64,000 nt of DNA from Schmidtea nova. Lineage: Eukaryota. A model generated the notes under the pieces. It was not told where the DNA came from. It did no database searches and saw only the letters and a program-made list of their open reading frames with translations. Positions within the stretch are counted from its first letter, which is position 1. Every line of letters starts with the position of its first letter. The stretch covers positions 191,952,001 to 192,016,000 of the forward strand of contig CM097883.1 in the NCBI GenBank assembly GCA_044892505.1. Direction: 5' to 3'. Shown here in pieces: positions 3,801 through 36,246 of this stretch. Made by a program: the position numbers and the translations under genes.

Positions 3801-6392
3801 TGCTAATATAAAAATTTTTCATTATTTGTCATTGTTAGAATATTAGGACAAAAGTTGGTATCGGTCGAGGGTGGGATAAAACGTGTGTGGATGTCGTAAA
3901 AATGTAATAAAAATTCATCGAAATCAATTAAACGCAGCTATTTTATTGCTTATTAAAATGCCGCTTTTTACTCCGTAATGCCAATAAATAAATAATTTAA
4001 GAAATTCCTTCCAAATTAAGTTGAAAAAAATAGAAACTTAAACATTTTGGCACAATTTGAAAATTGTGAACAACTAGTGGTTAATGAACATTATTCTCTT
4101 CGTGTAATGTATAATGTTTTCAAGGACGTGTTTCTCAACACTTAGAAAAAATCTATTAATTTTGTAAATGAAAAACGGTGACTTTAATGACATATTCAAA
4201 ACACTTCAAAAGACTTACGTTCCAGGATGAAGGAAATAAGATAAATTACAAAATTTAATATTCAGATTAAAAATAATAATTATCAAACATCTTAAAATTT
4301 ATCATCACACCCTACTAAAATCGCAAAAATTTTCAATTTACTAGCATAAATGATTAATGTTTTATCAATATTTTACTAATTAATTATAATTTCAGAATTG
4401 CTGGCAGATGGAAAAATCGATAATAATATGATCATGATAACATTATGATCTCAATTAGCATATTAAATGCACCAATCGATATTTATTCATGTGATAAAAA
4501 TAAGATTTCGTATTAATATTTATTCATTTAAGACTAATTTGGAAATAAATAGCTATTATAATTTAGCCTCTTGATTTAACTCAAAGAATCTCATTGTCAA
4601 CCGTTGATTCATTTTAGCAAACTTTTCTGTACACATATTAATGCAAGATATCTACATTAGACTTTCAAATATGAAACAAAATTTAAATTTAACCTCTGTG
4701 TCTTTCATTTTTCTATTTGTAAAATCTGTAATGCATCTGTTGAAACACAGAGAAGAGGCATTGACATAGAGTTGAGCTGCTTCCTTTATTTGTAACTAAA
4801 AAATAATTATTAATGAATTATTTATTGACTAAATTATACCTTTGATAACGTAGCTTCAAAATCACTCTCAGAACTCATTTCATATGAATAACAAATATCA
4901 ATATTAAAACAAACACCTGAAAATAGTAATTTATCTTTCACTATTCTATTTATATTCAAATTCTTTAGGTTAATAAGTGTATTATTTATAAAATCTAGTT
5001 TTTAAAATAATTAAATTATTCAATTTTTACAATTGATTTATTATTTGATAAAATTTAAGATATATTATTTAGATATTATCTAATATAATAATTTGGAATC
5101 ACTGAAATTTCGTTAAAAGTAAAAATTCTAAATAAGTAATTGAAGACTTTCAGTTTCGATTGAGCAGTGATCTTATATTTTCTAATGTTATAGTGTTTTC
5201 TCACAATGCTGCCAGGCCTCTAATTATCTTTGTGACACGATTTAAAGCAACATAATTTAAACCGTAGACAGTACTGTTGGGCTGGCGGAATCGAAAATAA
5301 ATTTTGCTTAAATTTATCAAAAATTAAATATATACAAAGAGAAACAAATTCAAATTTTATGATAAGACATTAATCAGTAAAATAATGCAAAGGAAAATAA
5401 AACAGCAAAGTACCGCATCTCATAAGTCGGTCGAGATAGGGTTGAAAGGATAAAAAAGAGGCATCTCAGTGCAGGTCGGATATTCACACGAAAGACCGCA
5501 CGAGAATTGAATGGGCAAGATCATTGCTTATATAGTGACTACGAAAATCATGGTCAAAGAATAAAATCGTTATCAGAATAAATAAAATAATTTATTAAAA
5601 GTTATAAAGAAAATCCCATTGAAATATCGTAAAAATAACAGAAATAGGTATAAAAATTGATTTAAAATTAAAATTGATTATTTTAATCAATCAATTAATG
5701 CACAAAAAACAATGGATACACACATCATTTATTAGAATTAAAAACAACTATTTTGGAAAATAAATTAAATTATAAAGTTAAATTTATAAAAAATAAATAA
5801 ATACTCACTTATTAAAACTAATAAGTAAGTTTAAATTGCTAATATCATTATATAAATAATAACATAAGTGGGCGTCAGTAAAATTAGTATAAATAGACTC
5901 TGAAAAATCAGTCTAAACTTCCCTCGGCATTAATTTACTGAGAGAAAATTTTGACTTCGTAAGTCAGTTGTAAGGATCGATTTCAGAAGTATGTTTTATG
6001 TTTATGTTGCTGGTGTGTTGGTTAGATTGACAACTGAGATCATTATGATTTTATATGTTAGGGTGATCTCGCCAACATAAAAACATTCCCCCGCTGACAC
6101 CCATGATGTATCCCTAACTACTCATCATGTTGGTACTGTGTCAACGTTGTGAAATGACAAGGCAGGTGAGCAACCTTACGGCTACTATTCCCTTGTTTAT
6201 TCACGGGTCCACCACTACCGATAGAAGGTGTTTGTGGATTTCTTTCGGTCCCACTTATGCTCTTGTCTATTGTCCTAGGGTAATTTAGTCTTAGCGCATC
6301 TGCTGTTCTTCATGAATCCGGGTTTTAGTTATATTCAATTCTCAGACATTCCACAAACAAACAAGACAAGTCAACTCATTCATTTTATACAT

Positions 6393-7043
6393 TTATTTAT
6401 AGTTTAACAATACAGAGGGTCTAATTACATTTAGTAGTTCTCGCTCGGATAGACCACTGAGCAAGTCTACTTCTATTCCCAGGTGATCCGCATATGCGCG
6501 TCTCTCCCTACGTTTTTTCGCTCCCAAGCGATTCCTTCGTTTGGTCCTCTGCGACCCTCGTGGTATGGTTGTGGTCATCTCGGTTGCCGTGGTTACGGTT
6601 ATCTCTTTGTCGGTTTGCGTACTCGTCGTTGCTGATGTCGAAGTTAACCATTTGTTGAAGGTACTCATCCTAATCACTGGACGCAATTGCTCAACGATGA
6701 AATCTTGGGTCGACACCTTTAAATAATTGGCCAACTCTAACTTCAGGGCTGCGACCTCCCTCGCTTGTTCATCGATCGTTCGCTCCACTCTGTATCGGGC
6801 CTGTAAGATGGCTTTAACCCTCTCAGGATTAAACCACGTTGCCTTAATCCGCTGGTGCTCCTCGTTCAGTTGTCTCAAGCGACTCTCGAGGACACGGGAT
6901 CGTGCTCTATGTTCGCGTGCCTCTTGCTTGTAATTTCGAGTGGGATTTTCGTCCATATCTGAGTAATGTATCATTAACCAGGGTATGTATGCATTGTTTG
7001 GTTTCTCAGTCCCTATTTTATTGTTAAACAACTGCACCCTCAT
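6393..7043 (-). CDS. LTR-encoded ORF B, 216 aa, coiled coil plus Thr-rich linker and basic (NLS-like) tail
   Basis: Intact in both LTRs (copy 32542-33192). AATAAA overlaps the stop and is followed by a GT-rich tract. No recognisable homolog. Confidence 0.6.
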   Translation of the reverse strand: MRVQLFNNKIGTEKPNNAYIPWLMIHYSDMDENPTRNYKQEAREHRARSRVLESRLRQLNEEHQRIKATWFNPERVKAILQARYRVERTIDEQAREVAALKLELANYLKVSTQDFIVEQLRPVIRMSTFNKWLTSTSATTSTQTDKEITVTTATEMTTTIPRGSQRTKRRNRLGAKKRRERRAYADHLGIEVDLLSGLSERELLNVIRPSVLLNYK

Positions 7044-7151
7044 CCTTACTCATTCCACATACATCCAAAACCAAAACAAAACCCTTTTAAATGGATACAT
7101 ATATTTTTAATTTACAACAGATGTTCGTACATTGGGGTGTCGTCCTCGTGA

Positions 7152-7787
7152 TCAATTGTATGGTCGTAACTCTTGATCGGCCGGGTTCTCGTCTCGGCGA
7201 ATCCCTGTTTCATGGTATATTTCGGGGGCCGGATTCCAACTCAGTTTGTTTTGATAAATGAACACCTCCCAGAGGCGAAGGTCTTTGGGCTCGGGGTGTT
7301 GATCCACGGAAACACTGCCTGGGGCGTTCGGGTAAACGAAGACTTCCCCAGTGTCACCACACCGAGGCCTGTCTAGCAGCAAATACCCGAGTTGACCGAA
7401 TGCCTGCCCGGTCATCATTCCGGTGCTTAGTACCCAGCGGGGTTGTTGTGTTTCATCTACAAATTGATAGAACCATCTTTCGTATCCATCTTTGGTGGGG
7501 TTCGGGGAGGGCGTCCAATCGACATCGCCTTCCCACCTCAGCTGTAGTTGGAATGCACAGGCGGGAATACTTGCCGCTGTGCTCATATGGGTCCTTGTCC
7601 ATCGACGCAGGTGTCTACGTGCGGAGTTGAAAATTTGTCGTGGGGCCTCCTTCTCTCCTTGGATCTCAGTAGGTAATTTTTGTGTGATGACGGAGCGGAT
7701 GCGCCGTTTCCTCCGTAGAATGTACTCCTCTAATTTGACGGTTAGGGGTCCTACCGGCTCCTTCATGAGATATTCTGTTTTCATCAT
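7152..7787 (-). CDS. LTR-encoded ORF A, 211 aa, unknown function
   Basis: Intact in both LTRs (copy 33301-33936). TTTCAG acceptor 6 nt before the ATG. ATTAAA and a GT-rich tract follow the stop. Confidence 0.6.
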   Translation of the reverse strand: MMKTEYLMKEPVGPLTVKLEEYILRRKRRIRSVITQKLPTEIQGEKEAPRQIFNSARRHLRRWTRTHMSTAASIPACAFQLQLRWEGDVDWTPSPNPTKDGYERWFYQFVDETQQPRWVLSTGMMTGQAFGQLGYLLLDRPRCGDTGEVFVYPNAPGSVSVDQHPEPKDLRLWEVFIYQNKLSWNPAPEIYHETGIRRDENPADQELRPYN

Positions 7788-9247
7788 GTTGCTCTGAAAT
7801 GGAATTTTAGGTTAACTGACAGACTCTATCATCGACCATCGATATTTATGTCGATCAACCTACTTGGTTTATCGTTCTATTAGCCGTAGGCCTTAGTAGC
7901 TCGAATATAATTTACTAGGCCGTTGGTCGCGATGTTCATGTAGGTGGTGACTTTACCTGGTGAGTTGATTCACTCCGCAATTTCAGACGGTTTTAGCTAC
8001 GCTAATTTTGGCTTGTTATTTACAATCAATTTATGTTACATTTAATCTTTCACCGATCATTTTCATTCACTCAACACAGTTCATTTACAGATCATCATCA
8101 GCAACTATCAAGGTTCTCGTCACGGGGAAAATTTAGTCATCCCTTAGTCAACTGCTTTGTTGAGGAACACACTAATTTTATCTACTATCGGGTCTGACTT
8201 TTCATGCCCTTAGTGGATTATATGTATATATCTGGCAGCTCATTCGATTCACTACTGCCCCTTGGTGTTAATGTCTTTCGACCGCGATGTTACGTTTTGC
8301 CTATCTCGATTCTCATCGACTTTTGATGTACTAGCACTCCTTGAAGGTATACCCCCTCATCAAGGTACCTCATGCATATATCTTCCCTTGCGAAATGAAC
8401 TTTTACCTTGAGTTGATTTATGGTCATTAACTGTCACCCGATACCCCGTCATCGTGATGTATAGCGTTTATACTAGGCCGTCGCTACCTTGATTTAGTTC
8501 ATGATCGTTAGGTCTTACTCGATACCCTATGTGCATCCCCCTTTCCCCCCCCATCAAGTATTTAGTAAACTTATGGTCCCGCCGCATCAGCACCTCACAA
8601 CCGATAAGGTGTGTTGCACTGAGAGGCCAAAGAATCCGTCAGGCTGTTAGGCCTCCGGAAAACCTTATGGATTTTAATATGATTATAAAATTATGAGGGT
8701 TTAAATAATTAACACTAAAACTCAACCATACTTGTATTTGGATTCCAATCGGTTTTACAATGTCTTCCGTAAAAGTGACTGTTGCACTGATTTACCTTCA
8801 GTAAAAAATGACATTTTCAAATACTAATTTGACTTCAGTATTTATACTCAACCGGTGTTGTTGGTTAGCCAATCAGCATCGAGTATGTGTGTATGTTTGC
8901 TTCATTTTTTCATGTTGTCGGCTTTTTGCTGCCTAACTTAACTCACCGATTTATTTGGTTAATCATGCGGTAAATTTATTTTTTGTATGATTTAATTTTT
9001 ATTTGATTTTGTTTTAACTCTTCGGTGACATCCGCCCACGCGCTGTAATATTCCGATTTTATTTGCTTCGCATGAGTGAGTTATGAAGATTTTTGTTGTT
9101 TTTATTAATACTCTATTTCTTTTAGATGTTGCCGCCTATTTTATTACACTTTGGTGTTGGTAATTTATTTTGTTGTTATTCTGTTGTAAATTTATTTTAT
9201 TGATTGTATATTATTTTTAGATGCTGCTCGATTTGGCTGGCCCAACA

Positions 9248-9263
9248 TCACTCGGGGTCCCCT
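9248..9263 (-). other. Candidate polypurine tract (imperfect)
   Basis: Minus strand AGGGGACCCCGAGTGA directly abuts the 3' LTR. It is only partly purine. Confidence 0.4.
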
Positions 9264-9447
9264 AAAATTGCGTCCCGCAATTACATGCATATACTTACAT
9301 CAACATGCATAAAAAGTTCGTGACAGAACTTACATGCAAAACCACATAAGGTGGTAGCTTTTATACACATTTTTACACATACACATTGTCATTGTCATGT
9401 TTATATTGTTACACAGTTCAATGTTTCTGGCTCATAGGGGTCGATTT

Positions 9448-9972: not shown

Positions 9973-10045
9973 TTCTGATTATTCCACTGATTAATACAGG
10001 TTACATCGATTTGTACATTTTTACACACGGATTTTTCGCCTCTTT

Positions 10046-11206
10046 TTACACATCCGTCTCCTCTGGTTCATGGAACCCTTCATCTTGAAGTTCCATTGGT
10101 GGTGGTGGTATAAACGGTAACCACACCACTCTACTTCTCCACATTGCAATTTCGTCTTGATACGTTCGAGAGATTTGTATTTCTTCATCTAACAGATACT
10201 CCATGTAGTCTGATTGTTCGTTCAGAGTTTCGATTTGTCTTTCCATTTCTTCCACTTTTCTCTTCAGGGCTTCTGTTTCTGTTGGTTCGGTTTCTATTTC
10301 TGGGGTTTCTTTCTCTGCTTTCAGGGTTATTATCTGCTGTTTCAGTTCTTCGTTTTCTTTCGTCAAATTCGTTATATTTTCCTCATACGCTTGGTTTGAT
10401 TCCGCATGTCTTTCCTTCACAGCTTTCAGTTCCATTTTCTTTTGAGTTACTACTCCTTGGTAGCCATTTACATCTCTTTCCAGACTTTCTTTTTCCCTGA
10501 TCAACTTTTGTCTTTCCGCTTCCTCTTTCTGTCTAATGCCTCGCATTTCTCCCTTTATCGTCTGTATTTGCCATTGCGTTTTCTTTAGTTCCTTTGCTTG
10601 TTCTCGAATAAATCGCTGTCGTTTTCGACTCCATTCTTTGTTTGTCTGTTCTTGTCGCTTTCTCTGTTCCAATTCCTCCTTCAATTCGTCTATCTCTTGA
10701 TACAATTTCCAATCTTCGCTGTATGCTGTCCTTCTGATTATCTCTTTGGCTTCTTTATATACTCGTTTCGACTCCATCTTCCAATGTCTCGCTTGAGCTT
10801 TGATAGGTAGTAGTTTTACCTCCATCTTTTCTTCTTGTTTCTCCCTTTCTTCTCTTCGCGTTTTCATCATATTTTTATAATGTTCTGCTTGTTTCCTCAT
10901 CCACTGATAGACCTCTTCTATCTTCTGTCGGCTTCGTGAATTCGTTCCTTTTAGCTTCTCTATTTGTGTTGTCAGTTGTACTATCTCTTTATTCACTTCC
11001 TCGAGTTCTAGTTGATATAACTCCATTCGTCTTTCGCATTTTAGTTTCTCGTAGAAATTGTTTGTCATCACTTCGTGTAATTCTCTGGTTCTTTGTTCCA
11101 CTTCCATTTTACATTTACTTTCGATTTCTCTTTCTATTGCTTCTCGTTCGTTCGCCATCTCGTTTTTCGTTTCATCTTCGATTACATGTTCATTTGCGTT
11201 TTCCAT
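10046..11206 (-). CDS. 386-aa coiled-coil protein ending in ETDV
   Basis: Long E/K/R/Q-rich heptad ORF. CAG 1 nt before the ATG. Confidence 0.8.
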   Translation of the reverse strand: MENANEHVIEDETKNEMANEREAIEREIESKCKMEVEQRTRELHEVMTNNFYEKLKCERRMELYQLELEEVNKEIVQLTTQIEKLKGTNSRSRQKIEEVYQWMRKQAEHYKNMMKTRREEREKQEEKMEVKLLPIKAQARHWKMESKRVYKEAKEIIRRTAYSEDWKLYQEIDELKEELEQRKRQEQTNKEWSRKRQRFIREQAKELKKTQWQIQTIKGEMRGIRQKEEAERQKLIREKESLERDVNGYQGVVTQKKMELKAVKERHAESNQAYEENITNLTKENEELKQQIITLKAEKETPEIETEPTETEALKRKVEEMERQIETLNEQSDYMEYLLDEEIQISRTYQDEIAMWRSRVVWLPFIPPPPMELQDEGFHEPEETDV

Positions 11207-11295
11207 TCTGTAATTTACAAATTTACACTTGTTATACTATATGTTTATTGTTGTTGTCAATTTTTACACTTTATTTACAGGGTCGTTCACTCTGA

Positions 11296-12708
11296 CTACT
11301 CTAACCATCCTTTCGTTGACTTCGTGTTCATCGCTGTTGTACTTGCTTTCTTTTCGATCTCCAACTCTACATATAAGTTGTCGTCGTACAACATCTCCCA
11401 CATTGTTTGGTGTGGTATGAATTTTGGTTCTCCAGTCGCTAATGAACATTCTGTGGTTGGTCTTTTGTAAGCTTCGTGCTTACCATCAATTTTGAATACT
11501 CTCGCTATTGTTTCTTTCGAGTTTTTCACTCTCATTATAGCCTTTGTTTCTAGCGGCCATTCTAATATGTCGTCGTAACCACCTTTACACAACGCGAAGA
11601 ATAGTGACACATGCGTTTCCTTTCCTGATCCATCTCCATTTGGATAAATTCTCATTCGAACTTTGTATCCATTTTTCCACAGATAGAATGGTGGACTTGT
11701 TACCGACACTTGACTTCCTGCTTTTGCTGCCGCGAACTTTTCGTTGAAGTTCTTGATTTTCCATACATATGGTGCAACAGGTAAACTCTCAATATCCTCT
11801 GCATCTCGTATCCACATTTGATGTCGCACGTTTACTTCTTTTACCAATGTCTCTATGACTTTGATTTTCTAAATCATTTTCTCTCTGGTGAGCTCGAATT
11901 GCTCTCTCGTTTCCAGTAATAACTCCGTCATTATCTTCTGAGATTCGATTTCTTTTCCCAGCTTCTGTATGGTTTGTTCCATTCCGTTTAAATTTTCTGT
12001 TAGCATCTCTGCGTGTTGTACCGTCTCTGTTTCTAAATGCTCTTTCATTTCTTTGCTCGTTTTCTTTACTAGACATCCTTGTTTACTCCATACGCACTTT
12101 CTTGGTCTTGCTTCGCACTGTTCCCAATGTTCTCTCAACATCACTTCTTCTCCGGTTCCGCAATTACTTGGACAAATTCCTCTGAATTTTCCGCACACTT
12201 TCTCTTCTGCTACATTGAGATGTTCTGTTTCGATTATCTCTCTTGTCTCCCTTTGTTCACAGTATTGACATTCTATTATTTCTGCTTTGCACTCGTTCTT
12301 GTGACTTTTCAACTGCTTGATGGTTATCGTCTGTTGACACTTTTCACATGTTGCTTTCTTGTTTTCGCATTTCTCCAGATGTTGTCTGAGTTCGATTATT
12401 TGACCTTTCCACTCACATGGTTGGTTTATACATTCTGTTTTTATCTTCCAGATCTCCTTTTGGATTGCTTTGTCTGGTTTCGTCTCGTTGATTAGTAGTT
12501 TATCGCCACACTCTGGACACTTTCTTATCTCACTTTCACTGATTATTTGCAATATACACTTGGTGCACATCCTGCATCCACATTCCGTTTGCCTCGGTTT
12601 TAACAGTAGATTTTTACACTTTACACACGTCACATTTACTCCCCATTGTCGATTTTCTCCTCTTAGAATTTCGATCGTTTGGTAATCTGCTTCGCTTTCT
12701 GCTCTCAT
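11296..12708 (-). CDS. TRAF-family protein (RING, TRAF zinc fingers, coiled coil, MATH) with one in-frame TAG at 11869-11871
   Basis: RING CVKC..LLKPRQTECGCRMC..C..CPEC, Zn fingers, MATH YVWKIKNF..SPPFY..GYK..YPNGDG..HVSLF. ORFs 11869-12708 and 11296-11847 are in the same frame (MI*KIKVIETLVKEV). Confidence 0.92.
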
Positions 12709-12799: not shown

Positions 12800-13150
12800 C
12801 TATACATCCTCCGTTGAATCTGGCTCTGGATACACGTCTATCTCATTTACAATCCAGCTCGTCCAACTATCCGGTATCTCTTCCTCTTCATGTCTCGTTA
12901 ATCGGTCAATTTCCTCTGCTTGCCAATTGTTCACTTCATTCAATGTTCGGTTCTCGTTCTGTAATTCGTTTATCTGTATTTGTTGGATCTCGATTTTGTT
13001 CATTGCTTCGAAATTACAGTTATGACTTTCGGTTAATAATTGCGTTTTGGCCGTCAACTGGCTCTGTAATTCGTTTATTGTTCTGGCTAGCAGGTCACAT
13101 TGCACTTTCCATCTTGTCATCATCGACATCTCTGTGGTTTCTTGATTCAT
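12800..13150 (-). CDS. 116-aa coiled-coil protein with acidic tail
   Basis: Heptad-like Q/E/N-rich ORF. TAG 7 nt before the ATG. Composition matches the rest of the element. Confidence 0.65.
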   Translation of the reverse strand: MNQETTEMSMMTRWKVQCDLLARTINELQSQLTAKTQLLTESHNCNFEAMNKIEIQQIQINELQNENRTLNEVNNWQAEEIDRLTRHEEEEIPDSWTSWIVNEIDVYPEPDSTEDV

Positions 13151-21034: not shown

Positions 21035-21055
21035 TGATTGAGGTGGAGCGCTGTA

Positions 21056-27000: not shown

Positions 27001-28168
27001 GTACTCTAGCCCATTCTTGATTATGTTTCTGTTGGCTTTCTCTATTCTCTCTTTCGGCCTCAGCTTCTATTAACTGGATCATGTTTATCTTTGGTTGAGC
27101 AGCTTGCTGGCTTCCTTTTGCCATGCTTTCGATTATCTCATGTAATCTGGATACCTCCTGTCTCAACTTAGCTTCTTTCATACTGGCTTCATTTGCACTG
27201 CTGTTTGGGTTATTCCGTTGTTGACCTTGATTCCCATAGCTTGGTCGATTCCCGTAATTCGGTCTATTTCCACTGTTTGACCAACTTCTCTGTTGATTAC
27301 AGTCTCTTGACATGTGTCCGGTTTTTCCACATGTGTAACACGTTTTCCCATAACATCGATTTTCTGAGTGACCTTTTTGTCCACACAGTTTGCAGGCTAC
27401 ATTCTGAAAACACTCTTGTTGCCAATGTCCGTTTTTCCCACACGTCTGACATTGCTTATTCTGCCTGTCATTGTAACTATTTCCTCCACTCGTGTTCACC
27501 GTGATATATCCGTTATTCTTCCTCGCTGGCGGTTCTTTGAATAGTCTCTGCGAATGGGGAATACTCTGGTTCATATTTCTTTTCCCTTGTTCTTCATCTT
27601 CTGTCGTTTTTCCCATTACCGCCGTAATTCTCATGTCATTCATTGCCATATGCAATTCGAATAGGTTGGCTGCTTCCAACGCTTCATCGACTGTTTTACA
27701 TCCTTTGCATCCCACTTGTGCTCTGATGTCAGGTCTCCTGAGACCTCGTACGAATAACGCTGTCATTAATTCCTCATCTACTGGACTTCCTCTGTTAAAT
27801 GCCAGTTTCACCAACTTTCTTAATTCGCTTGCGTACACCGCATTTGACTCGTTTCTCCTTTGTTTTCTTGCTGAAAACTCATCGAATGCTTCATTCAGCA
27901 CTTTATTTATCCCAAACGTCTGTTGGAAGAACTCCTTGATTGCTTCCCACGTTCTGGGTGGACTACTTCCCGATCTCTTTTCAATATACAGATCCAATGC
28001 GCTATCTTTCAAGTATAGCGGGATTCGATTTGCCAACGTTTCTGCACTCCATCCGCATATATCCACGAATATGCCAAATTCCTTTAGAAACGTGTCCAAT
28101 CTACTGGCGTCTCCATTGAATGGTTCGCCCTTGAATTTTTCTCTCAGATCCTCTCTGTGATCGCTCAT
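21056..28168 (-). CDS. gag: Gag-cargo-Env polyprotein, 2370 aa: capsid, 3 CCHC knuckles, 2 Ubl-like domains, Bcl-2-like domain, chuvirus-type glycoprotein
   Basis: PFNGDASRLDTFL..WEAIKEFFQQTF capsid. CQTCGKNGHWQQEC, CKLCGQKGHSENRC, CYTCGKTGHMSRDC. EPYILRKGGWEKF (BH2-like). Cys-rich glycoprotein between a signal-like segment and a TM. Confidence 0.93.
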   Translation of the reverse strand: MSDHREDLREKFKGEPFNGDASRLDTFLKEFGIFVDICGWSAETLANRIPLYLKDSALDLYIEKRSGSSPPRTWEAIKEFFQQTFGINKVLNEAFDEFSARKQRRNESNAVYASELRKLVKLAFNRGSPVDEELMTALFVRGLRRPDIRAQVGCKGCKTVDEALEAANLFELHMAMNDMRITAVMGKTTEDEEQGKRNMNQSIPHSQRLFKEPPARKNNGYITVNTSGGNSYNDRQNKQCQTCGKNGHWQQECFQNVACKLCGQKGHSENRCYGKTCYTCGKTGHMSRDCNQQRSWSNSGNRPNYGNRPSYGNQGQQRNNPNSSANEASMKEAKLRQEVSRLHEIIESMAKGSQQAAQPKINMIQLIEAEAERENRESQQKHNQEWARVRREEEQVRQQRLQQLKKGNPRINMMRAMMEEKQQDESDESEVKEKRNEGQKQEEVNQEVEVAEQNQKDEEVEKETETEKEVEKETNQEEEVRIKQRGMLVIMPNDHVWRFKYDVKEEVGRLFNKVNEMIPGVTKLPREAFLQTEDLPEVKLKMTDIWENMGVTETKINVMIIREAEPEKIPPPVKHQTRISRIFKGKIRRRRLEEIDELEKRMGKAEITGNENELIQEVSKNEARPTAHIGMLRHPRQELSDEEDDSEVSSLAGDMLKEPENEDKKMEVVETIETMSVKEEEIQKLMDNALEVIHNEEFIDGKRYRKFIRAVWQMKYKEWLQEREVRVIQEFIEKLLKEPLNEYVIQIWINECSPRIWIRNPMTDGIYRWVEDRLGSSYKDKFIYSENGLVRKGTHMIDTGIWPGEITTLAICNTKKEENLQGIVREANTCYEMRIKPQLMEAKERILAENLNTMIEQIIQQIKKHRKELTKSEYENLKQCIENIRDTSQTRHSNFKTDKLIAKMGKEMFKRGEVSDLMITVRLPNEETRQIEVIPDSKVGEIVEVINETILQREREDEFEDDIAIKYKEHLLNERDERRAYKIGIWDNYQTIHVIRMDDVQRATPRDEERKKKRQEDVMRKLRQIVEIYRNWQMKPEWETILGELDLNRRRLTPVEKQWDNKEKCWKVKRGVYEEDPEEEDRYELNTKRICMVTRRLLPTDLDGPETAVIWAELEKQKTSELIELLRGNTRGKRQTIKGLAQFIISNGEDITNLRKVAKAIAEYKRVNEWCPEQLDDVIKKWRNREFAEETPQKIHLRIMYPNQRKEEFWVMLTEKVKSVKEKLMYELPFHLQHQGRSLDNNLEIWLTPVQLDLMNTLTVAQIVGQPLKFKEEKKAKGSMSTPSPMKSTMTPGTSSGQARTTPIKTRERTPPEAYDVDEILTDSDEAIEELTKLTQKPTANIFDRIIEMPITSPAEIDDQGVEQEVVIEMVNDSEDEQEQPQFTQEMERWLEQRANEGRDVTEETGRAARFIETGTGMEKRPRGRPKIDPATTIPKTREERRQEQWEICLKKLDKIAEIRGKEKNQVCQGEEWLTKTIMDVLAIIDPELKNLWRINEPSTKAKMLHNAIAPIMPELIKAKTKSNHLDWQGTTMLIKRLLNGAETDSKYLVAISYTIYNLLTLSRGSPKSSPMGRHIKNTAMIIEKEIEPYILRKGGWEKFIKENQTKEGSNVMRKKLEGVLREMENRQTMQGNGRSTLNLNSIIMMMLVWLLSTEGVTTFEVFDCDQMKLGEKYSLRGTEQCKDATPVELKEIKKEQWYHVYQEAELIKTMVNECKVQKTRFAFYCGRGHYSAIVMPGTEREPIVLQGEDCEALFKHGEVTTRDKIKIKGKPGMMLQQTYYVAGRITGGEGYCQGETYPIFGAPATNLVVMDTYIVELKSYEAFFEPTTGEMKTLSMCKIDRSMCQTGMSTLVYKPKVNECQLQLLQGAKFDEIQGKTFQEEDDDDKARAKHLKEALENKRQLRPDHREKRIEMRATPTVLITTNQDVGMRFIKGKATLKCSTTVYETNYPGIYVSKQEVPNAKPKIDTMDIKLHLYVNNKMDFLFHRGQASLQKVYYDLINNDCILNREILKTKLAEAITNPDSAMPLLPLREGHFGRVVGEAMYVYICEKTHASLAATTQLKPGQCTNELEIDYKGKVRYVQPVTRIINPPGFEPNPFNCSNAYGPLYQKPDGKWVMFPGRTEVLAPREFELMQLSKDRQFSDVDVSNNGIYSPKDLEAARQNILFPARREALLSNIVTITGGTNYREGPNYELLLSPAHFKKATENMMKAMWGRFLIFGQMMAGILGVILIIQIVRVIITQMLACFDIYKREKKMNWKMVVGFLPFLAKTMVLHGHSKDIHRIKRLLKILAKMKGTNEDVGRKFKKIMQDEQARRQLKKERKGLWERVRGYRTQDDSSNDDDDDDQGGQANINQIPQYTEKSAVENW
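21330..23250 (-). other. env: Envelope domain, chuvirus G-like (class III fusogen) within the Gag polyprotein
   Basis: Motif series FDC..C..CKV.....YCG..H..C..AG...G.C.G, YVNNKMDF, DCIL, GEAMYVYIC, GIYS.KDL..ILFP, WGRFLIFG..AG, matching from memory the chuvirus-like glycoproteins. Confidence 0.8.
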
Positions 28169-29043
28169 CCCGATTCCACTATCTTGGAATACTGTACTAG
28201 TTTTCTTTGCTTCTAGTTCACCACTTGTTTCTGAATTCGACTCTTCTTTTTCACTACTCTCTGTTTCGTTATCTCTTGATTCGCTTCTTGTTCTGTTTTC
28301 CCTGACTAGTTCACTGTCTATCGTCTCTACTTCGTTTTGAACTTCTAGATCTTCTGGGGTTTCTTCTTGGTTCTCTTTATTACTCGAATTATCGCTGATC
28401 TCTACTTGTTTGTTCTTTTGTTGCTTAGGCTTGTTACCTGTTCTTGTTCTTTTTGCTGCTTTTCTTTCGGCTTCCGTTAAGATTGGTATTATACCTGATC
28501 TTGTTTCTCGTCCCTCAATTTTGTCTATTCCTCAATTTCTTATATTCTCAACTGATTTTCTACTCCGCTTTTGCTTTGCTTCTTCTTTGATTTGTTTCCT
28601 TTGATTGCTCTGACTGCTAGATTGCCTTGAATTGTTTGATTGATTTGTTTCCTTAAAACAAATAATCACTTACACGATACGTCCCCGTTATCGTGTTTCT
28701 CGTCCCTCTCACGGGTGTAGTCATAATTCATGAAGATCCCCATTTTTCCCATTTCCCTTGATTTTAAGTCTATTTAAATTATCTATGCAGTCGTATCAAT
28801 TATCTATTCTTTATCAAATACACCAATTACTTTTCCCCAGTTTCCCAATCACTTTGTCGCTCAGCGCTCTTATTATTCCCTTTACTTTTCTCAGGCTTCT
28901 CTGGCTCTGAGTTCAAATTTCCCCTTATCTGTCGACTACCCTGTTTCTCGACTATTCGCTTTATTTCCTATTCACACTACGTTTACTACTTCATTTCAAT
29001 TCTCATCTCTACTCACCTTTAATTCAACTGACATCTCTCGTTG

Positions 29044-29510
29044 GCCTGCTGGGTTTTCCAGTCAGCGCTTTTAATCTCACCTTTTATCTCGAACTCTGTT
29101 TCTCTCAACTTCACTCATTATCTCATTAGCCTGCTGGGTTTTCCAGTCAGCGCTTTTAATCTCACCTTTTACTTCTGCTTCATTATTCTCGACCTCAATT
29201 GTCGTTTCATTAGCCTGCTGGGTTTTTCCAGTCAGCGCTCTTATTATCCACCCTTTATCTCTTCACTGTCGACTTTTACCTGCTCTTTATTCCGATGATC
29301 ATCACTTTTGACCTGCTGGGTCTTCCAGACAGCGTCCTCAATTTCACCACTTTATTATTACTCACTTTTGTTCTCTCGATCTTTCCTGATCGTTATCGTT
29401 GACCTGCTGGGTTTTCCAGCTAGCGTCTTTACCACTTTACCTGTCTTACCAAACCGGTTTCATTTTATTCTCATCGAATCTCATGGTCTGCTGGGTTTTC
29501 CAGTCAGCAC
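29044..29510. repeat. Six copies of a ~21-nt hairpin CTGCTGGGTTTTCCAGTCAGC spaced 84-98 bp apart
   Basis: Core starts at 29046, 29131, 29215, 29313, 29404, 29488. The spacers are pyrimidine-rich and mostly divergent. Confidence 0.9.
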
Positions 29511-29831
29511 CTTTACTTACTCACTTTACTTTACTACTCCTTTGTATGCATACTTTCACCTCATTAGGCCACATAATCAGCTTTACTCGCATTTATCAAT
29601 ACCTAGGTGCGCACCTTCAACTCTCTCGTTATTAATTCGGTTTCTTTCAACCCTTATTCCTCATTATTCGCTATTCATTTTCACTATTCATCATTTATCC
29701 TCATTATCACTTATTCATTTCCATTATCGCTTATTGATCTTCACTATCCGGATAGTTTTATACTTTATTTAGTCCTCATCTGCCTCACTTCGTCGTCTTT
29801 CTCGTGGGCTTTTACTCGATATTTTATTTCG

Positions 29832-30450
29832 AACGAGAACTATGCTCACCGTTGAGAACTATGCTCACTGACGAGAACTATGCTCACTGACGAGAACTAT
29901 GCTCACTGACGAGAACTATGCTCACTGACGAGAACTATGCTCACTGACGAGAACTATGCTCACTGACGAGAACTATGCTCACTGACGAGAACTATGCTCA
30001 CTGACGAGAACTATGCTCACTGACGAGAACTATGCTCACTGACGAGAACTATGCTCACTGACGAGAACTATGCTCACTGACGAGAACTATGCTCACTGGC
30101 AAAACATGGTTGTTATGAGGGTTCTGCTTACTGATGGAAACTCTTTGCTCCGGGGACTATGTTCCCCGATGAGAACTATGCTCACTGATGGTGACTACAG
30201 GAATTATGTTTCCTGATGAGAACTACGCTCACTACGATGACTATGTTTATTGATGAGAACTACGCTCACTGATGAGGACTATGTTCGCTGGTCTTGTGTT
30301 TATTAATGAGAACTCTGCTCACTACGAGATTTATATTTACGGACGAGAACTATGCTCACTATGATGTTGTGTTTCATGACGAGACCTATGCTCACTATGG
30401 TGTTATTTTTATAACGAGACCTATGCTCACTATGAGACCTATGCTCACGA
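29832..30450. repeat. 19-bp tandem array (GACGAGAACTATGCTCACT): 12 perfect units 29870-30097, 2 variants before, degenerate copies to ~30445
   Basis: Counted directly from the sequence. Confidence 0.95.
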
Positions 30451-31152
30451 ACGAGAACTCGAAATATCATCTCTCAGTGGTTGCATGTGTTGCTTCGGGA
30501 TGTTCCTCCCAGTGGTCACTTATGCTTCTTCGGAGAATCTATTGTCGCGTTTCGTTAAGTTCTATCTTTCAAGAACTATGGGCAAATCCTTTCTCTTTAG
30601 GACCCCTTTTATCATTTCCTTTCTTTCAAGGAATTCGTTAAATCCTCGAGTTTTTTCCCTTTCACTCGGTTCATCTATTACACCCCTTTATTCTGTTATC
30701 TATTCATCGACTTCTCTACTTGATTTTACTTTATGCGAGCTGATTACGTGCCTTTCATCATATACCTCATTTCTCTACTCATCTTACTCATTTCATTGCT
30801 TTATCTCTCTCTTTACTGATCAGTTTCAACATCCTCTTTTTATAGTTTTTTCTGCGCGCGCCTAAACCTCGTTGAGTTGTCCCTACCTTTCACCCCAACC
30901 AAAATATATAAAAAGATCGCATTGGTCCACTGATGCACGATGTGGTGATCAATCACATCACAAGAGCTTTCCAATATCCGCGATTGGCCCCTTTCTACAC
31001 ATTTCGGGTAAGTTGATCAGTTGGTTCCCCCCAATGGGTGCTTATCGGACTACTCGTGAGTAGCTCATAATTACTTAGGTCATTTTTACTAAATCATCTT
31101 TAAACCCTCATAATTTCAATAACAACTGCACTTGTTCAAAACTTTATTTCTA

Positions 31153-31611
31153 TTACAAGTACACTGTTATTTTCTCGGATACGGGAAGGTTGCACATAGG
31201 ACATCGTTCATTTATTTTACATTCATTACAGAATCGGAAATGCCCACACGGCAACAACATTATCTGTATTTTGTTCATTTCACAGATATAACACGTCAGA
31301 TATTGTCTCGTATGTTCTGTTGTTATTCTTATCCACTCATCGTGTTTTGTTGTTAACTGTTGCTCTAGCCTGTGGCACTCGATATTCATCTCAGGGTTGT
31401 TTAATCTTTCTCTATACCATTGATATCGTGTTGCTGTATCCACTGTGTTCTTATTCTCACTTAAGCTCATCATCCTTTCGGCTCTTTCTGTGTTGTTTGT
31501 CGGTTCGTGATATTCTCCTACCTCGAGTCGTTTTAACTTTCTCGTTATTGTCTCCACTGTCTCGTTGTTTGTTTCGAAAAACGTTTGCATTTCTTTTATT
31601 TTGTTCTCCAT
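31153..31611 (-). CDS. 152-aa protein with C-terminal IAP/Mdm2-type C3HC4 RING (putative E3 ligase)
   Basis: CYIC.....IMLLPCGHFRFCNEC...RCPMC...SEKITVYL at the extreme C-terminus. CAG 3 nt before the ATG. No BIR domain seen. Confidence 0.85.
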   Translation of the reverse strand: MENKIKEMQTFFETNNETVETITRKLKRLEVGEYHEPTNNTERAERMMSLSENKNTVDTATRYQWYRERLNNPEMNIECHRLEQQLTTKHDEWIRITTEHTRQYLTCYICEMNKIQIMLLPCGHFRFCNECKINERCPMCNLPVSEKITVYL

Positions 31612-32132
31612 CCCCTGAATGAATTCTCATTAATTTTGTTATCGATTTTTATTTATTATTTATCATTCCTATTCTATGGTAGCCCTACTGTTCGCTTTCT
31701 GTTGTTCTGTTTTACGTCGTTACTTGCGTATCCCCCCGTGTTCTTGAATGTCGCCCCGACATGATCCTTGTTAGCTGCTCACACTCCTACCATTTTCATA
31801 CACGCTTTTCATCATACTTTTACATCATGCATACTTTTCATCACTTTTCATACTGTCACTCCACATACTATTCATCCTGCTTCATTCATCCTCATATTTC
31901 CACATTCATACTTTCGTTCTCATGCATACTTTTATCATGCTCATCATTCTCATTATTTTGCACTCATACTTTTATTTATTATTTTTCAACCCGATTCATT
32001 CTTGCTTCAGGACCCTCAAACCCTCTATTATTTACTTTACTTTTCCTCGCTAAATTCAATTCCATCCCGGTTCATGCGCTCTAACACTGTCCGCAGATAT
32101 CGAATTCACTTTTTCCCACAAAGATCGATATA

Positions 32133-32150
32133 ATCCCGGCTGAGCCCCCA
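32133..32150 (-). other. Primer-binding site, tRNA-Pro type
   Basis: Minus strand TGGGGGCTCAGCCGGGAT, 16/18 identical to the canonical Pro PBS TGGGGGCTCGTCCGGGAT, 6 nt from the 5' LTR. Confidence 0.9.
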
Positions 32151-32541
32151 AATTTATGCTGGTGTGTTGGTTAGATTGACAACTGAGATCATTATGATTT
32201 TATATGTTAGGGTGATCTCGCCAACATAAAAACATTCCCCCGCTGACACCCATGATGTATCCCTAACTACTCATCATGTTGGTACTGTGTCAACGTTGTG
32301 AAATGACAAGGCAGGTGAGCAACCTTACGGCTACTATTCCCTTGTTTATTCACGGGTCCACCACTACCGATAGAAGGTGTTTGTGGATTTCTTTCGGTCC
32401 CACTTATGCTCTTGTCTATTGTCCTAGGGTAATTTAGTCTTAGCGCATCTGCTGTTCTTCATGAATCCGGGTTTTAGTTATATTCAATTCTCAGACATTC
32501 CACAAACAAACAAGACAAGTCAACTCATTCATTTTATACAT

Positions 32542-33192
32542 TTATTTATAGTTTAACAATACAGAGGGTCTAATTACATTTAGTAGTTCTCGCTCGGATA
32601 GACCACTGAGCAAGTCTACTTCTATTCCCAGGTGATCCGCATATGCGCGTCTCTCCCTACGTTTTTTCGCTCCCAAGCGATTCCTTCGTTTGGTCCTCTG
32701 CGACCCTCGTGGTATGGTTGTGGTCATCTCGGTTGCCATGGTTACGGTTATCTCTTTGTCGGTTTGCGTACTCGTCGTTGCTGATGTCGAAGTTAACCAT
32801 TTGTTGAAGGTACTCGTCCTAATCACTGGACGCAATTGCTCAACGATGAAATCTTGGGTCGACACCTTTAAATAATTGGCCAACTCTAACTTCAGGGCTG
32901 CGACCTCCCTCGCTTGTTCATCGATCGTTCGCTCCACTCTGTATCGGGCCTGTAAGATGGCTTTAACCCTCTCAGGATTAAACCACGTTGCCTTAATCCG
33001 CTGGTGCTCCTCGTTCAGTTGTCTCAAGCGACTCTCGAGGACACGGGATCGTGCTCTATGTTCGCGTGCCTCTTGCTTGTAATTTCGAGTGGGATTTTCG
33101 TCCATATCTGAGTAATGTATCATTAACCAGGGTATGTATGCATTGTTTGGTTTCTCAGTCCCTATTTTATTGTTAAACAACTGCACCCTCAT
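32542..33192 (-). CDS. LTR ORF B, 5' LTR copy
   Basis: 216 aa, 2 aa differences from the 3' LTR copy. Confidence 0.55.
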   Translation of the reverse strand: MRVQLFNNKIGTEKPNNAYIPWLMIHYSDMDENPTRNYKQEAREHRARSRVLESRLRQLNEEHQRIKATWFNPERVKAILQARYRVERTIDEQAREVAALKLELANYLKVSTQDFIVEQLRPVIRTSTFNKWLTSTSATTSTQTDKEITVTMATEMTTTIPRGSQRTKRRNRLGAKKRRERRAYADHLGIEVDLLSGLSERELLNVIRPSVLLNYK

Positions 33193-33300
33193 CCTTACTC
33201 ATTCCACATACATCCAAAACCAAAACAAAACCCTTTTAAATGGATACATATATTTTTAATTTACAACAGATGTTCGTACATTGGGGTGTCGTCCTCGTGA

Positions 33301-33936
33301 TCAATTGTATGGTCGTAACTCTTGATCGGCCGGGTTCTCGTCTCGGCGAATCCCTGTTTCATGGTATATTTCGGGGGCCGGATTCCAACTCAGTTTGTTT
33401 TGATAAATGAACACCTCCCAGAGGCGAAGGTCTTTGGGCTCGGGGTGTTGATCCACGGAAACACTGCCTGGGGCGTCCGGGTAAACGAAGACTTCCACAG
33501 TGTCACCACACCGAGGCCTGTCTAGCAGCAAATACCCGAGTTGACCGAATGCCTGCCCGGTCATCATTCCGGTGCTTAGTACCCAGCGGGGTTGTTGTGT
33601 TTCATCTACAAATTGATAGAACCATCTTTCGTATCCATCTTTGGTGGGGTTCGGGGAGGGCGTCCAATCGACATCGCCTTCCCACCTCAGCTGTAGTTGG
33701 AATGCACAGGCGGGAATACTTGCCGCTGTGCTCATATGGGTCCTTGTCCATCGACGCAGGTGTCTACGTGCGGAGTTGAAAATTTGTCGTGGGGCCTCCT
33801 TCTCTCCTTGGATCTCAGTAGGTAATTTTTGTGTGATGACGGAGCGGATGCGCCGTTTCCTCCGTAGAATGTACTCCTCTAATTTGACGGTTAGGGGTCC
33901 TACCGGCTCCTTCATGAGATATTCTGTTTTCATCAT
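33301..33936 (-). CDS. LTR ORF A, 5' LTR copy
   Basis: 211 aa, 2 aa differences from the 3' LTR copy. Confidence 0.55.
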   Translation of the reverse strand: MMKTEYLMKEPVGPLTVKLEEYILRRKRRIRSVITQKLPTEIQGEKEAPRQIFNSARRHLRRWTRTHMSTAASIPACAFQLQLRWEGDVDWTPSPNPTKDGYERWFYQFVDETQQPRWVLSTGMMTGQAFGQLGYLLLDRPRCGDTVEVFVYPDAPGSVSVDQHPEPKDLRLWEVFIYQNKLSWNPAPEIYHETGIRRDENPADQELRPYN

Positions 33937-36246
33937 GTTGCTCTGAAATGGAATTTTAGGTTAACTGACAGACTCTATCATCGACCATCGATATTTATGT
34001 CGATCAACCTACTTGGTTTATCGTTCTATTAGCCGTAGGCCTTAGTAGCTCGCATATAATTTACTAGGCCGTTGGTCGCGATGTTCATGTAGGTGGTGAC
34101 TTTACCTGGTGAGTTGATTCACTCCGCAATTTCAGACGGTTTTAGCTACGCTAATTTTGGCTTGTTATTTACAATCAATTTATGTTACATTTAATCTTTC
34201 ACCGATCATTTTCATTCACTCAACACAGTTCATTTACAGATCATCATCAGCAACTATCAAGGTTCTCGTCACGGGGAAAATTTAGTCATCCCTTAGTCAA
34301 CTGCTTTGTTGAGGAACACACTAATTTTATCTACTATCGGGTCTGACTTTTCATGCCCTTAGTGGATTATATGTATATATCTGGCAGCTCATTCGATTCA
34401 CTACTGCCCCTTGGTGTTAATGTCTTTCGACCGCGATGTTACGTTTTGCCTATCTCGATTCTCATCGACTTTTGATGTACTAGCACTCCTTGAAGGTATA
34501 CCCCCTCATCAAGGTACCTCATGCATATATCTTCCCTTGCGAAATGAACTTTTACCTTGAGTTGATTTATGGTCATTAACTGTCACCCGATACCCCGTCA
34601 TCGTGATGTATAGCGTTTATACTAGGCCGTCGCTACCTTGATTTAGTTCATGATCGTTAGGTCTTACTCGATACCCTATGTGCATCCCCCTTTCCCCCCC
34701 CCCATCAAGTATTTAGTAAACTTATGGTCCCGCCGCATCAGCACCTCACAACCGATAAGGTGTGTTGCACTGAGAGGCCAAAGAATCCGTCAGGCTGTTA
34801 GGCCTCCGGAAAACCTTATGGATTTTAATATGATTATAAAATTATGAGGGTTTAAATAATTAACACTAAAACTCAACCATACTTGTATTTGGATTCCAAT
34901 CGGTTTTACAATGTCTTCCGTAAAAGTGACTGTTGCACTGATTTACCTTCAGTAAAAAATGACATTTTCAAATACTAATTTGACTTCAGTATTTATACTC
35001 AACCGGTGTTGTTGGTTAGCCAATCAGCATCGAGTATGTGTGTATGTTTGCTTCATTTTTTCATGTTGTCGGCTTTTTGCTGCCTAACTTAACTCACCGA
35101 TTTATTTGGTTAATCATGCGGTAAATTTATTTTTTGTATGATTTAATTTTTATTTGATTTTGTTTTAACTCTTCGGTGACATCCGCCCACGCGCTGTCAT
35201 ATTCCGATTTTATTTGCTTCGCATGAGTGAGTTATGAAGATTTTTGTTGTTTTTATTAATACTCTATTTCTTTTAGATGTTGCCGCCTATTTTATTACAC
35301 TTTGGTGTTGGTAATTTATTTTGTTGTTATTCTGTTGTAAATTTATTTTATTGATTGTATATTATTTTTAGATGCTGCTCGATTTGGCTGGCCCAACAAT
35401 GTTAACGTAATGTTTTTGGGATAATTTATATTCAATATTTACAATAAAGCTTTGATGTAAAATTTTCGTTTTGATTAAAGGATTCCTGATAAAAATCTGA
35501 CCGTAAAATAAATAAGTGCGCCCTCTGTTGGGAAAGCCGTATTGGTGGGCCTGTTTATAGCTTCACAGTAAGGTTAGAACAAACTAAAATTCATTGATAA
35601 TTAAATTTTGGTTAATGGGAAAATGAAAATTTAGGACATAAATGTAAAGTAAACATGAGGGAGTTAAGAAAGGTTCTCTATCTATATTTTGTGAACGAAT
35701 AAATGTAGGAAATTGAAAGCTAAGATATAATCATGCGCCAAGACCGTAGAGTAAGCAGATGCGTAAGTTCTTTTATCAGCAGCAGGAACCCAAAGGAAAA
35801 AATATAGTGAGAAGTGGTTTTGGTAGCGAAGCTCATCTGTTCACTAGATTCTCGCCACCGTGTACAGTATCAACATAGTTAATTAGGAAATAACTATGGA
35901 TTCACGAGTGAGGTCGTTTAATATTTATGATGGGCTATGGGTTGTATTAATACCTAGAGGCAAAAATCATTTTTATAACAACGCCCATATCATCCAAAAG
36001 TACAGTTGGGCAAAAACTAAGAGTTGTTTAAAAGAAGTGGTAACACAGCACGTAGAGAGCGCACAAGAAGTTTATTTAAAATTCATTGAGCCAAAACATC
36101 AAATTAAACATATGTTGAGGTTCCGAGAATCTCAACTTGATGTTTCTTATATAAATAGAAACAAGACTGGTTCTTTTCTAAACTTTTATTTAAATTATAA
36201 TAATTTACAAATTTGATAAAAATTAAACAATTATTTCACAGATAAG

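Follow-up and report, generated by a model that had tools for sequence, protein, structure and literature searches.

What kind of element occupies positions 6008 to 35398 of the window, the 64,000-nucleotide stretch of Schmidtea nova DNA analysed here? A sequence-only reading had seen in it a complete, enveloped retrovirus-like element with a toolkit against apoptosis and innate signalling. We find that it inserted recently, is broken by nonsense mutations and belongs to a high-copy Ty3/gypsy (Metaviridae) LTR family; the features of the element are collected in Table 1. Its termini are as intact as had been claimed: LTRs of 3.24 kb place TG..CA ends at 6008 and 35398, the 4-bp target duplication ATGT lies on either side, and no N interrupts the sequence between. 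The two LTRs differ by 6 mismatches and one 2-bp indel over 3,240 aligned columns. The primer binding site, also rightly recognised, is set 6 nt away from the LTR and exactly complements the host tRNA-Pro(TGG) end. Exact LTR-primer binding site junctions count at least 516 family copies (control, 0). An LTR pair is present in 18 of 20 family copies, 17 of them with 99.67-100% LTR identity, and total length across the 18 ranges from 25.7 to 29.6 kb. An Rfam search gave 0 matches. Two sequencing runs of unspecified kind covered 30/30 bins, which has no bearing on expression.

Table 1. Positions of the element and its features within the window, listed in the element's own reading direction
Feature	Position	Strand	Remarks
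Whole LTR element	6008..35398	minus	29,391 bp; internal region 22.9 kb
5' LTR	32157..35398	-	3,242 bp; TG..CA ends
LTR-borne 211-aa ORF	33301..33936; second copy 7152-7787	-	no known family; omega 0.16
LTR-borne 216-aa ORF	32542..33192; second copy 6393-7043	-	no convincing family; omega 0.10
Primer binding site	32133..32150	-	18/18 complement of host tRNA-Pro(TGG) 3' end + CCA
152-aa RING ORF	31153..31611	-	helical N-terminus and IAP-type C3HC4 RING, without BIR
Tandem repeat arrays, 4-kb leader	29032..30435	.	85-bp, 19-bp x14 and 35-37-bp units
Polyprotein piece 1 (Gag, Ubl, Bcl-2-like, Env)	21056..28168	-	2,370 aa; private stop at end
Gag capsid and three CCHC knuckles	27296..28141	-	Retrotrans_gag E=7e-6
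Two Ubl-like domains	25169-25426 and 24359-24595 (span 24359..25426)	-	weak profile support
Bcl-2-like domain	23339..23836	-	BH2-type GGW kept; BH1 W-G-R-type motif not kept
Env	21410..23245	-	PF24664 E=1e-67
Polyprotein piece 2 (PR, linker, RT, RNase H, IN, ankyrin start)	17033..21055	-	same frame; private stop at end
PR	20585-20857	-	Pfam match; DTG present
RT	19445-19921	-	Pfam match; YIDD present
Polyprotein piece 3 (ankyrin, hydrophobic segments, four Cys-bearing repeats, TM, 60-aa tail)	13274..17032	-	same frame
Four ~86-aa repeats, predicted FN3 fold	14888-15145, 14423-14695, 14123-14380, 13748-14005 (span 13748..15145)	-	one repeat folded
Last TM of polyprotein	13463-13519	-	after FN3-fold repeats
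116-aa likely coiled-coil ORF	12800..13150	-	omega 0.05
TRAF gene (RING, TRAF zinc fingers, coiled coil, MATH)	11296..12708	-	private stop 11869-11871 splits this copy
386-aa likely coiled-coil ORF	10046..11206	-	omega 0.08
174-aa ORF with one strong TM segment	9448..9972	-	omega 0.11
3' LTR	6008..9247	-	3,240 bp

Completeness holds for the termini but not for the coding sequence: two in-frame stops interrupt the polyprotein and a third interrupts TRAF, and a full polyprotein is beyond this copy. The stops, at 21056-21058, 17033-17035 and 11869-11871, are shared by 0/38, 0/38 and 0/35 covered sister copies, respectively. Since all three are private to one copy, the family encodes a single polyprotein of ~4,960 residues, in the order Gag-Ubl-Bcl2-Env-PR-RT-RH-IN-ankyrin-FN3-TM, and beside it a TRAF of full length and further free ORFs. 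Indeed, 5 of 20 family copies are free of stops and frameshifts over 4,964 codons, naturally open frames reach about 5,080 codons, and the TRAF frame is open over 476 codons in many copies. True gene ends carry a stop codon in 35/35 covered copies, and the polyprotein end stop (13274-13276) is common to the whole family. The element itself shows three long ORFs with an ATG in each, as would be expected if the stops were signals for programmed read-through or separated distinct gag-env, pol and accessory genes; that design has next to no chance of being correct, as all three sites are free of stops in the sister copies and one of the stops sits within an ankyrin repeat. It is rejected for the 39 copies examined.

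The Ty3/gypsy assignment of the enzymes was borne out by the order PR-RT-RH-IN and the catalytic motifs DTG, YIDD and D,D(35)E, the last kept in IN, which matches Pfam as does RNase H. Between PR and RT lies a conserved 96-aa linker (omega 0.02; 61% identity to a sister family) with no Pfam match; it occupies the position of Burro's dUTPase-like region. The supposed fusogen is likewise confirmed by its match to PF24664, and this match, the signal and TM segments and the cysteine pattern fit a class III (gB-like) ectodomain, which stays putative. The Env comprises an internal signal-like segment (aa 1642-1660), a 14-Cys ectodomain, a REKR furin-type site and a TM segment (aa 2224-2242), and all of these, the 14 cysteines included, are conserved in family copies. 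Env is present in 18 of the 19 rows of the RT clade. A comparison of Env with PDB sequences gave no match.

The cargo domains fared differently under profile searches: TRAF, RING, ankyrin and the fusogen were recovered, the Bcl-2-like and Ubl domains came through only via relatives, and FN3 failed by sequence and stood by predicted fold. The ankyrin repeats of the polyprotein match Pfam at E=4e-10. Against ubiquitin-like PDB chains, the two Ubl-like domains reach a weak E=0.002-0.02 at best, with a profile built with relatives. The Bcl-2-like domain alone has no Pfam match, whereas a profile that includes three sister-family domains matches Bcl-xL (E=1e-4). Set against four host Bcl-2 ORFs, it obtains only 3% probability in hhalign and is missing their BH1 motif; a homologue search with this region returned nothing, an atlas search gave no usable match, and its single-sequence fold (pLDDT 45) was unusable. 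For the four repeats ahead of the last TM segment, sequence searches, including a profile against PDB sequences, found nothing significant, and the FN3-TM half had 0 matches among 1.84 billion proteins. By contrast, an alignment-based model of one repeat (pLDDT 80) matches FN3 domains, with middling Z-scores (7.4). A second hydrophobic segment between repeats 1 and 2 complicates the topology of repeats 2-4. The FN3 region scored 0.83 in the atlas search, a lead only.

MATH occurs in the downstream TRAF gene only and not in the polyprotein. As the sequence-only reading held, this gene is a TRAF, with profile matches for MATH (E=2e-27), zf-TRAF (E=2e-5) and a RING-ZnF region against TRAF6 (E=5e-14), and 8/8 of its RING ligands are invariant in 20 copies. 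In a MATH tree that took in 16 genomic loci, chosen among 150 listed, only two branches were starred and the donor TRAF stayed unplaced. The short RING ORF carries an IAP-type RING (E=3e-9) with cIAP and XIAP RINGs as best PDB matches and all 8 ligands invariant across 18-19 copies; no BIR matched in the 11 element ORFs scanned. The 211-aa LTR-borne ORF keeps its length among LTR subtypes at 60-67% identity, and a homologue search with its alignment returned nothing. Complex retroviruses also have genes for proteins that lie within the LTR or overlap it (MMTV sag, foamy virus bel genes). Unlike them, the element has a Ty3/gypsy RT and a putative class III-type Env; the likeness is one of gene placement.

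The family's cargo is maintained by selection and the family is still multiplying. Measured on variants common to dispersed copies, every ORF is under purifying selection (omega 0.01-0.21), against controls of 0.49-1.71 for non-coding sequence and 1.5-3.8 for wrong frames. Both the Bcl-2-like domain (omega 0.01; 48 synonymous and 2 non-synonymous) and Env (omega 0.02; 125 and 8) are tighter than the polyprotein linkers (Fisher p=0.004 and p=0.0003, respectively). Shared synonymous and non-synonymous variants number 66/21 for TRAF, 30/13 for MATH, 24/16 for the RING ORF and 89/52 for the FN3 region. However, constraint is strong in the linkers themselves (omega 0.05-0.07), and it is no tighter in Ubl, TRAF or MATH (p 0.2-1). 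Selection thus demonstrates a function without telling which.

Giant, enveloped planarian retroelements that carry apoptosis cargo are, in their design, largely published already. The reading of an enveloped Ty3/gypsy element with cargo stands in large part, for an architecture mostly described before in the compared parts of PMC6431247 and PMC13524379, and the giant Burro elements it mentioned do appear in the former with the same cargo types: Gag, MATH/TRAF-C, Ubl, BCL2, ankyrin and BIR, and an in-frame Env that follows Gag and precedes PR. According to the same part of that description, Burro-1 (GYPSM1) to Burro-4 of Schmidtea mediterranea and a Burro-like element of Dugesia tigrina resemble ours in their ~30 kb, multi-kb LTRs and polyprotein of ~4,900-5,100 aa, in a Gag with three CCHC followed by Ubl, BCL2-like and an in-frame Env ahead of PR, and in a mononegavirus-like fusion protein, ankyrin repeats, MATH/TRAF, tandem repeats and high copy number. 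Among Burro clade traits, we find a length of ~30 kb, an internal region of <=25 kb, a single polyprotein (at family level) and MATH/TRAF and ankyrin cargo, as well as Ubl then BCL2-like before Env, the latter through transitive profile support only. Two traits of the Burro-1 subfamily proper, MATH in the polyprotein and a BIR-containing IAP, are missing. Unlike Burro as described in that part of PMC6431247, the element has its MATH in a downstream full-length RING-ZnF-MATH TRAF gene (in the D. tigrina element, MATH is in an upstream ORF), its family is without BIR, and its FN3-fold repeats with terminal TM and two LTR-borne genes have no counterpart there.

A sister family in the same analysis (L152-154) has MATH within a 4,606-aa polyprotein, in Burro1's domain order, and is 88% identical to the element's family in RT-RNase H. 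Both the RT-RH and the Env tree place the two as sisters (SH-aLRT 100). Judged by architecture and by this family, taken as proxy for a Burro reference sequence, the element's family likely belongs to the Burro clade of planarians. The part of PMC13524379 compared describes six S. mediterranea elements, Smed_errantivirus_1-6, with the same Gag-Env-Pol order and an HSV/gB-type Env; by eye, the element's Env has eight cysteines and several motifs in common with these, errantivirus_5 being closest. The sister family resembles Smed_errantivirus_6, and a 14-15-kb family resembles _3; the supplement rows compared for these entries hold no LTR, primer binding site or cargo annotation. The Burro1 BIR-RING protein (B-IAP; Lee et al. 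2026, Dev Cell), as cited in part of PMC13465017, is reported to be anti-apoptotic and to protect stem cells, with BIR credited with caspase protection. There too, an LTR element carries an IAP-type RING and anti-apoptotic-looking cargo; the element's own RING is without BIR.

The same genome holds a high-copy 25-kb relative without capsid, Env, RT and IN (2/2 copies fetched). Its cassette, in the same order, holds a full TRAF together with a BIR-RING IAP, and of the latter protein only the RING matches the element.

We consider it probable that this is a giant Ty3/gypsy family of Burro type that would spread from cell to cell in enveloped form, its Bcl-2-like, TRAF and RING proteins damping cell death and stress signalling. 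Hydrophobic segments within the polyprotein may thread it through the ER membrane, with signal peptidase, furin and the element's protease as the enzymes that cleave it. The Env signal-like segment, right after the Bcl-2-like domain, could double as the tail anchor of that domain and tether Gag to the membrane. The putative gB-type Env would, rather more probably than not, fuse membranes for entry, and there is a slight balance in favour of TRAF and RING modulating TNF/TLR-type signalling and apoptosis, whether as E3 ligases or as adaptors. A surface protein of receptor-like or decoy kind, made up of the FN3 repeats ahead of the last TM, is a guess at a little under even chances from the predicted fold. 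That the family would be infectious and would manipulate host cell survival, as the sequence-only reading had proposed, we infer from sequence, the selection on Env being an indirect sign of the former.

Such an Env might instead be kept for ER-membrane budding or particle assembly in a purely intracellular retrotransposition cycle. High copy number fits this, as does the multiplication of the Env-less relative; an Env locked in frame between Gag and PR is hard to lose, and part of PMC13524379 calls it unclear how far such Envs mediate infectivity. However, Env amino acids are tighter than the linkers, the signal-like segment, furin-type site, 14 cysteines and TM are all retained, and Env persists nearly throughout the RT clade; we regard the intracellular cycle as unlikely. 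Somewhat less likely again is that the captured domains serve as structural parts (anchor, spacers, assembly aids) with no action on apoptosis or immunity. The divergent Bcl-2-like domain without BH1 motif, the missing BIR and the weak Ubl matches would suit it, but TRAF is free-standing and full-length with invariant RING ligands, and the cassette recurs with a BIR-RING IAP in a capsid-less, RT-less relative, where a structural role is implausible. Finally, the cargo may be kept for the benefit of the host, as the Burro1 protein reportedly protects stem cells (as cited in part of PMC13465017). This we hold to be improbable: constraint on variants common to dispersed mobile copies points to selection during replication, and single copies, the present element included, accumulate stops, although host benefit could remain a side effect.

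It is tempting to extend the enveloped reading to a helper-satellite consortium, in which autonomous enveloped families would package the 25-kb cargo relative and supply the FN3 decoy and LTR regulators, cell-death and immune control being pooled among co-packaged genomes; we think this doubtful. No non-autonomous Burro is described in the titles or abstract openings of the literature searched, nor was literature found that joins retrotransposon, FN3, polyprotein, planarian and ankyrin.

In the Burro and errantivirus literature compared, we found neither the FN3 membrane tail, the LTR-borne genes and the cargo-only relative nor the free full-length TRAF; the figures and supplements of Grohme 2018 and Lee 2026, outside that scope, may show them. 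Our findings add quantitative purifying selection on Env and every cargo gene in a still-multiplying family, and evidence that TRAF/MATH and IAP modules shift among polyprotein, free genes and cargo-only relative. Should enveloped spread between cells be shown, a retrovirus-like life cycle within a host would become open to testing outside insects, in stem-cell-based animals. Counts in the planarian TRAF expansion reported in part of PMC6109357 might also be raised by TRAF copies that sit in such elements.

The element is genuine and well formed, although this copy is broken; it belongs to a Burro-type family and is not Burro-1 proper. Its termini proved to be as the sequence-only reading had described them, with intact LTR ends, a target-site duplication and a primer site; the last lies 6 nt inward of the 5' LTR and is an exact 18-nt complement of the host tRNA-Pro(TGG) end plus CCA. 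The two LTRs of this copy differ at 6 of 3,240 columns and by one 2-bp indel. The coding strand between 13274 and 28168 is 41% A. Host tRNA-Pro(TGG) genes form a tandem array of 308-bp period, the 3' pattern having 1,105 exact matches genome-wide.

Features of the giant element and of its neighbours in the window
Feature	Position	Strand	Details
Giant Ty3/gypsy element	6008-35398	minus
LTRs	6008-9247 and 32157-35398	minus	TG..CA ends, flanked by 4-bp duplication; two ORFs inside each
Leader, 4 kb			152-aa RING ORF and tandem arrays
Three successive long ORFs	21056-28168, 17033-21055, 13274-17032	minus	common frame, single stop between each
3' of polyprotein frame			116-aa ORF; TRAF gene with one splitting stop; 386-aa ORF; 174-aa ORF
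Small ordinary Ty3/gypsy element	38422-43349	+	239-bp LTRs, 99% identical; Gag-Pol ORFs fragmented
Tc1/mariner-type HTH transposase fragment	43837-44355
Separate 413-bp element	46298-46710		inverted arms of 101 nt, 95%
513-aa ORF, then repeats	50817-53447		weak DUF7041 match; 120-bp repeats and 13-bp tandem array with TGACTCA
Two ORFs upstream of non-LTR ORF	54054-56503
Non-LTR retrotransposon ORF, 1,497 aa	56612-61105	+	N-terminal Ulp1-type protease and RT

The claim that the element is complete holds for its termini but fails for its coding sequence, which is broken by three stops absent from the sister copies covered. A 1.2-kb RT query gave 822 first candidates, of which 40 were scored (97-100%) and 39 compared with the window copy; these are the closest copies, and older subfamilies are under-sampled. 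The three sites carry a sense codon in 38 of 38 covered copies, in 37 of 38 (with a gap in the other) and in 35 of 35, and the true gene ends carry a stop codon in all 35 covered copies. Among 20 copies extended to full length, picked from those with full middle coverage, five have neither stop nor frameshift across 4,964 codons, and natural open frames of ~5,080 codons exist. The stops are thus damage rather than design, and the products encoded by the family are a single polyprotein and an undivided TRAF.

The family has multiplied recently and under purifying selection. An LTR pair was recovered in 18 of the 20 copies, 17 at 99.67-100% identity, and a gap lowers the remaining pair to 95.6%; short flanking duplications were seen to differ between copies. 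Exact matches to the LTR-PBS junction number 516, against 0 for the reversed control. Omega was computed from variants common to at least two of 21 copies, with a simple estimator uncorrected for mutation bias. Values were 0.01 for the Bcl-2-like domain, 0.02 for Env, 0.02-0.06 for Ubl, 0.00-0.03 for PR, RT, RH and IN, 0.05-0.12 for ankyrin, 0.05-0.21 for the FN3 repeats, 0.08 and 0.12 for the TRAF halves, 0.16 for the RING ORF, 0.05-0.11 for other 3' ORFs, and 0.16 and 0.10 for the LTR ORFs, against 0.49-1.71 in nine non-coding pseudo-frames and 1.5-3.8 in six wrong frames. Polyprotein linkers are likewise constrained (0.05-0.07); relative to these, constraint is significantly tighter only in the Bcl-2-like domain and Env, and looser in FN3, RING and the 211-aa LTR ORF. 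This last ORF has the same length in different LTR subtypes, at 60-67% identity. In three of the 18 paired copies the LTRs are short (1.5-1.7 kb, 3' LTRs) and most or all of both ORFs is missing from them, yet the two LTRs of each copy are nearly identical; the LTR genes are therefore dispensable in cis.

The proposed Ty3/gypsy enzymes (PR, RT, RNase H, IN) were matched directly, as were Gag, CCHC, ankyrin, MATH, zf-TRAF, RING and the fusion glycoprotein PF24664 (E=1e-67 in Env); domain searches of the element found no BIR. The TRAF N-half best matches TRAF6 and TRAF5, and the leader RING best matches cIAP and XIAP. Env combines a signal-like segment and a TM with 14 cysteines and a furin-type site. 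The remainder of the proposed cargo set is reached less directly. Alone, the Bcl-2-like domain gave no match in a Pfam search, lacks the BH1 motif of host Bcl-2 ORFs and scored only 3% against these in hhalign. Its assignment is suggested only through relatives: it is 24% identical to sister-family domains that match PF00452 (E ~1e-5), and a joint profile, three of whose four rows are those relatives, matches Bcl-xL (E=1e-4). The Ubl profile matches almost exclusively ubiquitin-like chains (best E=0.002) and also picks a domain of the assembly polyprotein P0066 that Pfam calls ubiquitin (E=4e-5). The four C-terminal repeats have in common a T, a CW and two further cysteines. A model of repeat 3 (22-row alignment, pLDDT 80, seven strands) placed FN3 domains on top in Foldseek (best E=0.018, probability 1.0) and in VIA (Z up to 7.4, with an rmsd of 2.8 across 75 residues), a middling match consistent with a predicted FN3 fold. 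A motif that recurs eight times, among other places at the capsid end, before PR, between RH and IN and at the IN end, may mark PR cuts; 500 shuffles gave a mean of 1.1 and a maximum of 6 for this pattern, which was chosen post hoc.

We have here a tRNA-Pro-primed LTR element with a single polyprotein and free accessory genes. Internal hydrophobic segments would thread the polyprotein through the membrane, signal peptidase, furin and PR would cut it, and the Env signal segment would also act as a tail anchor for the Bcl-2-like domain. TRAF, RING and Bcl-2-like proteins would damp death and stress signalling, the FN3 repeats may form a surface protein, and the family would spread between cells in enveloped form.

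On novelty, which the sequence-only reading left undecided, the main architecture and the kinds of cargo have already been published. Burro elements carry Gag, MATH, Ubl, BCL2 and Env in frame ahead of PR, with dUTPase-like, ankyrin and BIR domains; their accessory ORFs may stand free or form part of the polyprotein as subdomains, and the elements have been suggested to be proviruses that meddle with apoptosis and ubiquitination (PMC6431247). The present family is a variant of this design, with a complete TRAF gene outside the polyprotein, a membrane tail of FN3 type, genes within the LTRs and a cargo-only relative. PMC13524379 catalogues six elements of S. mediterranea with Gag-Env-Pol order and a gB-type Env; compared by eye with the Envs given there, the window Env has eight cysteines and several motifs in common, most with number 5. 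The Burro1 BIR-RING protein is stem-cell-protective according to Lee 2026, as cited in PMC13465017, and PIWI loss derepresses BURRO1 (PMC8532177). These resemblances suggest that the host is a planarian.

In an RT-RH tree the element falls within a 98/97 clade of 19 of the 35 rows, mostly assembly proteins at 47-56% identity; 18 of the 19 carry PF24664, and the remaining sequence begins inside Pol. Assembly polyproteins P0065-P0089 have the Gag-Env-Pol order with varied cargo (extra proteases, ankyrin, ubiquitin-like, C2H2 and Ig domains). Sister to the element in quick trees of RT-RH and of Env (SH-aLRT 100) is a MATH-polyprotein family of the same genome, with which it has 88% identity over RT-RH and 50% over Env. 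This family's 4,606-aa Gag-Ubl-MATH-Ubl-Bcl2-Env-PR-RT-RH-IN-ankyrin order is that published for Burro1; it has a leader RING, the element's primer site and three FN3-like repeats, and no BIR within the stretch examined.

The cargo-only relative, a high-copy 25-kb family described from two copies, has LTRs of 4.4 kb. The pair, present in full in one of the two copies, is 99.96% identical, and these LTRs are ~82-85% similar to their counterparts in the MATH-polyprotein family. A single ~1,040-aa ORF holds Ubl, PR, ankyrin and one FN3-like repeat; tblastn of both copies gave no match to capsid, Bcl-2-like, Env, RT, RH or IN. Its 3' cassette keeps the window element's order of ORF, full TRAF and coiled coil but contains an additional, inserted BIR-RING IAP, an exact BIR 25-mer of which occurs 374 times. 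This family may be mobilised by the autonomous families. It has its LTR type and primer site in common with the MATH-polyprotein family, and the two jointly account for 2,158 exact matches of the junction. Further families of 14-15 kb encode Gag-Ubl-Bcl2-Env-Pol (~3,000 aa), then a 584-876-aa ORF with a faint ISG20 exonuclease match (E=0.032); by eye, their Env resembles Smed_errantivirus_3.
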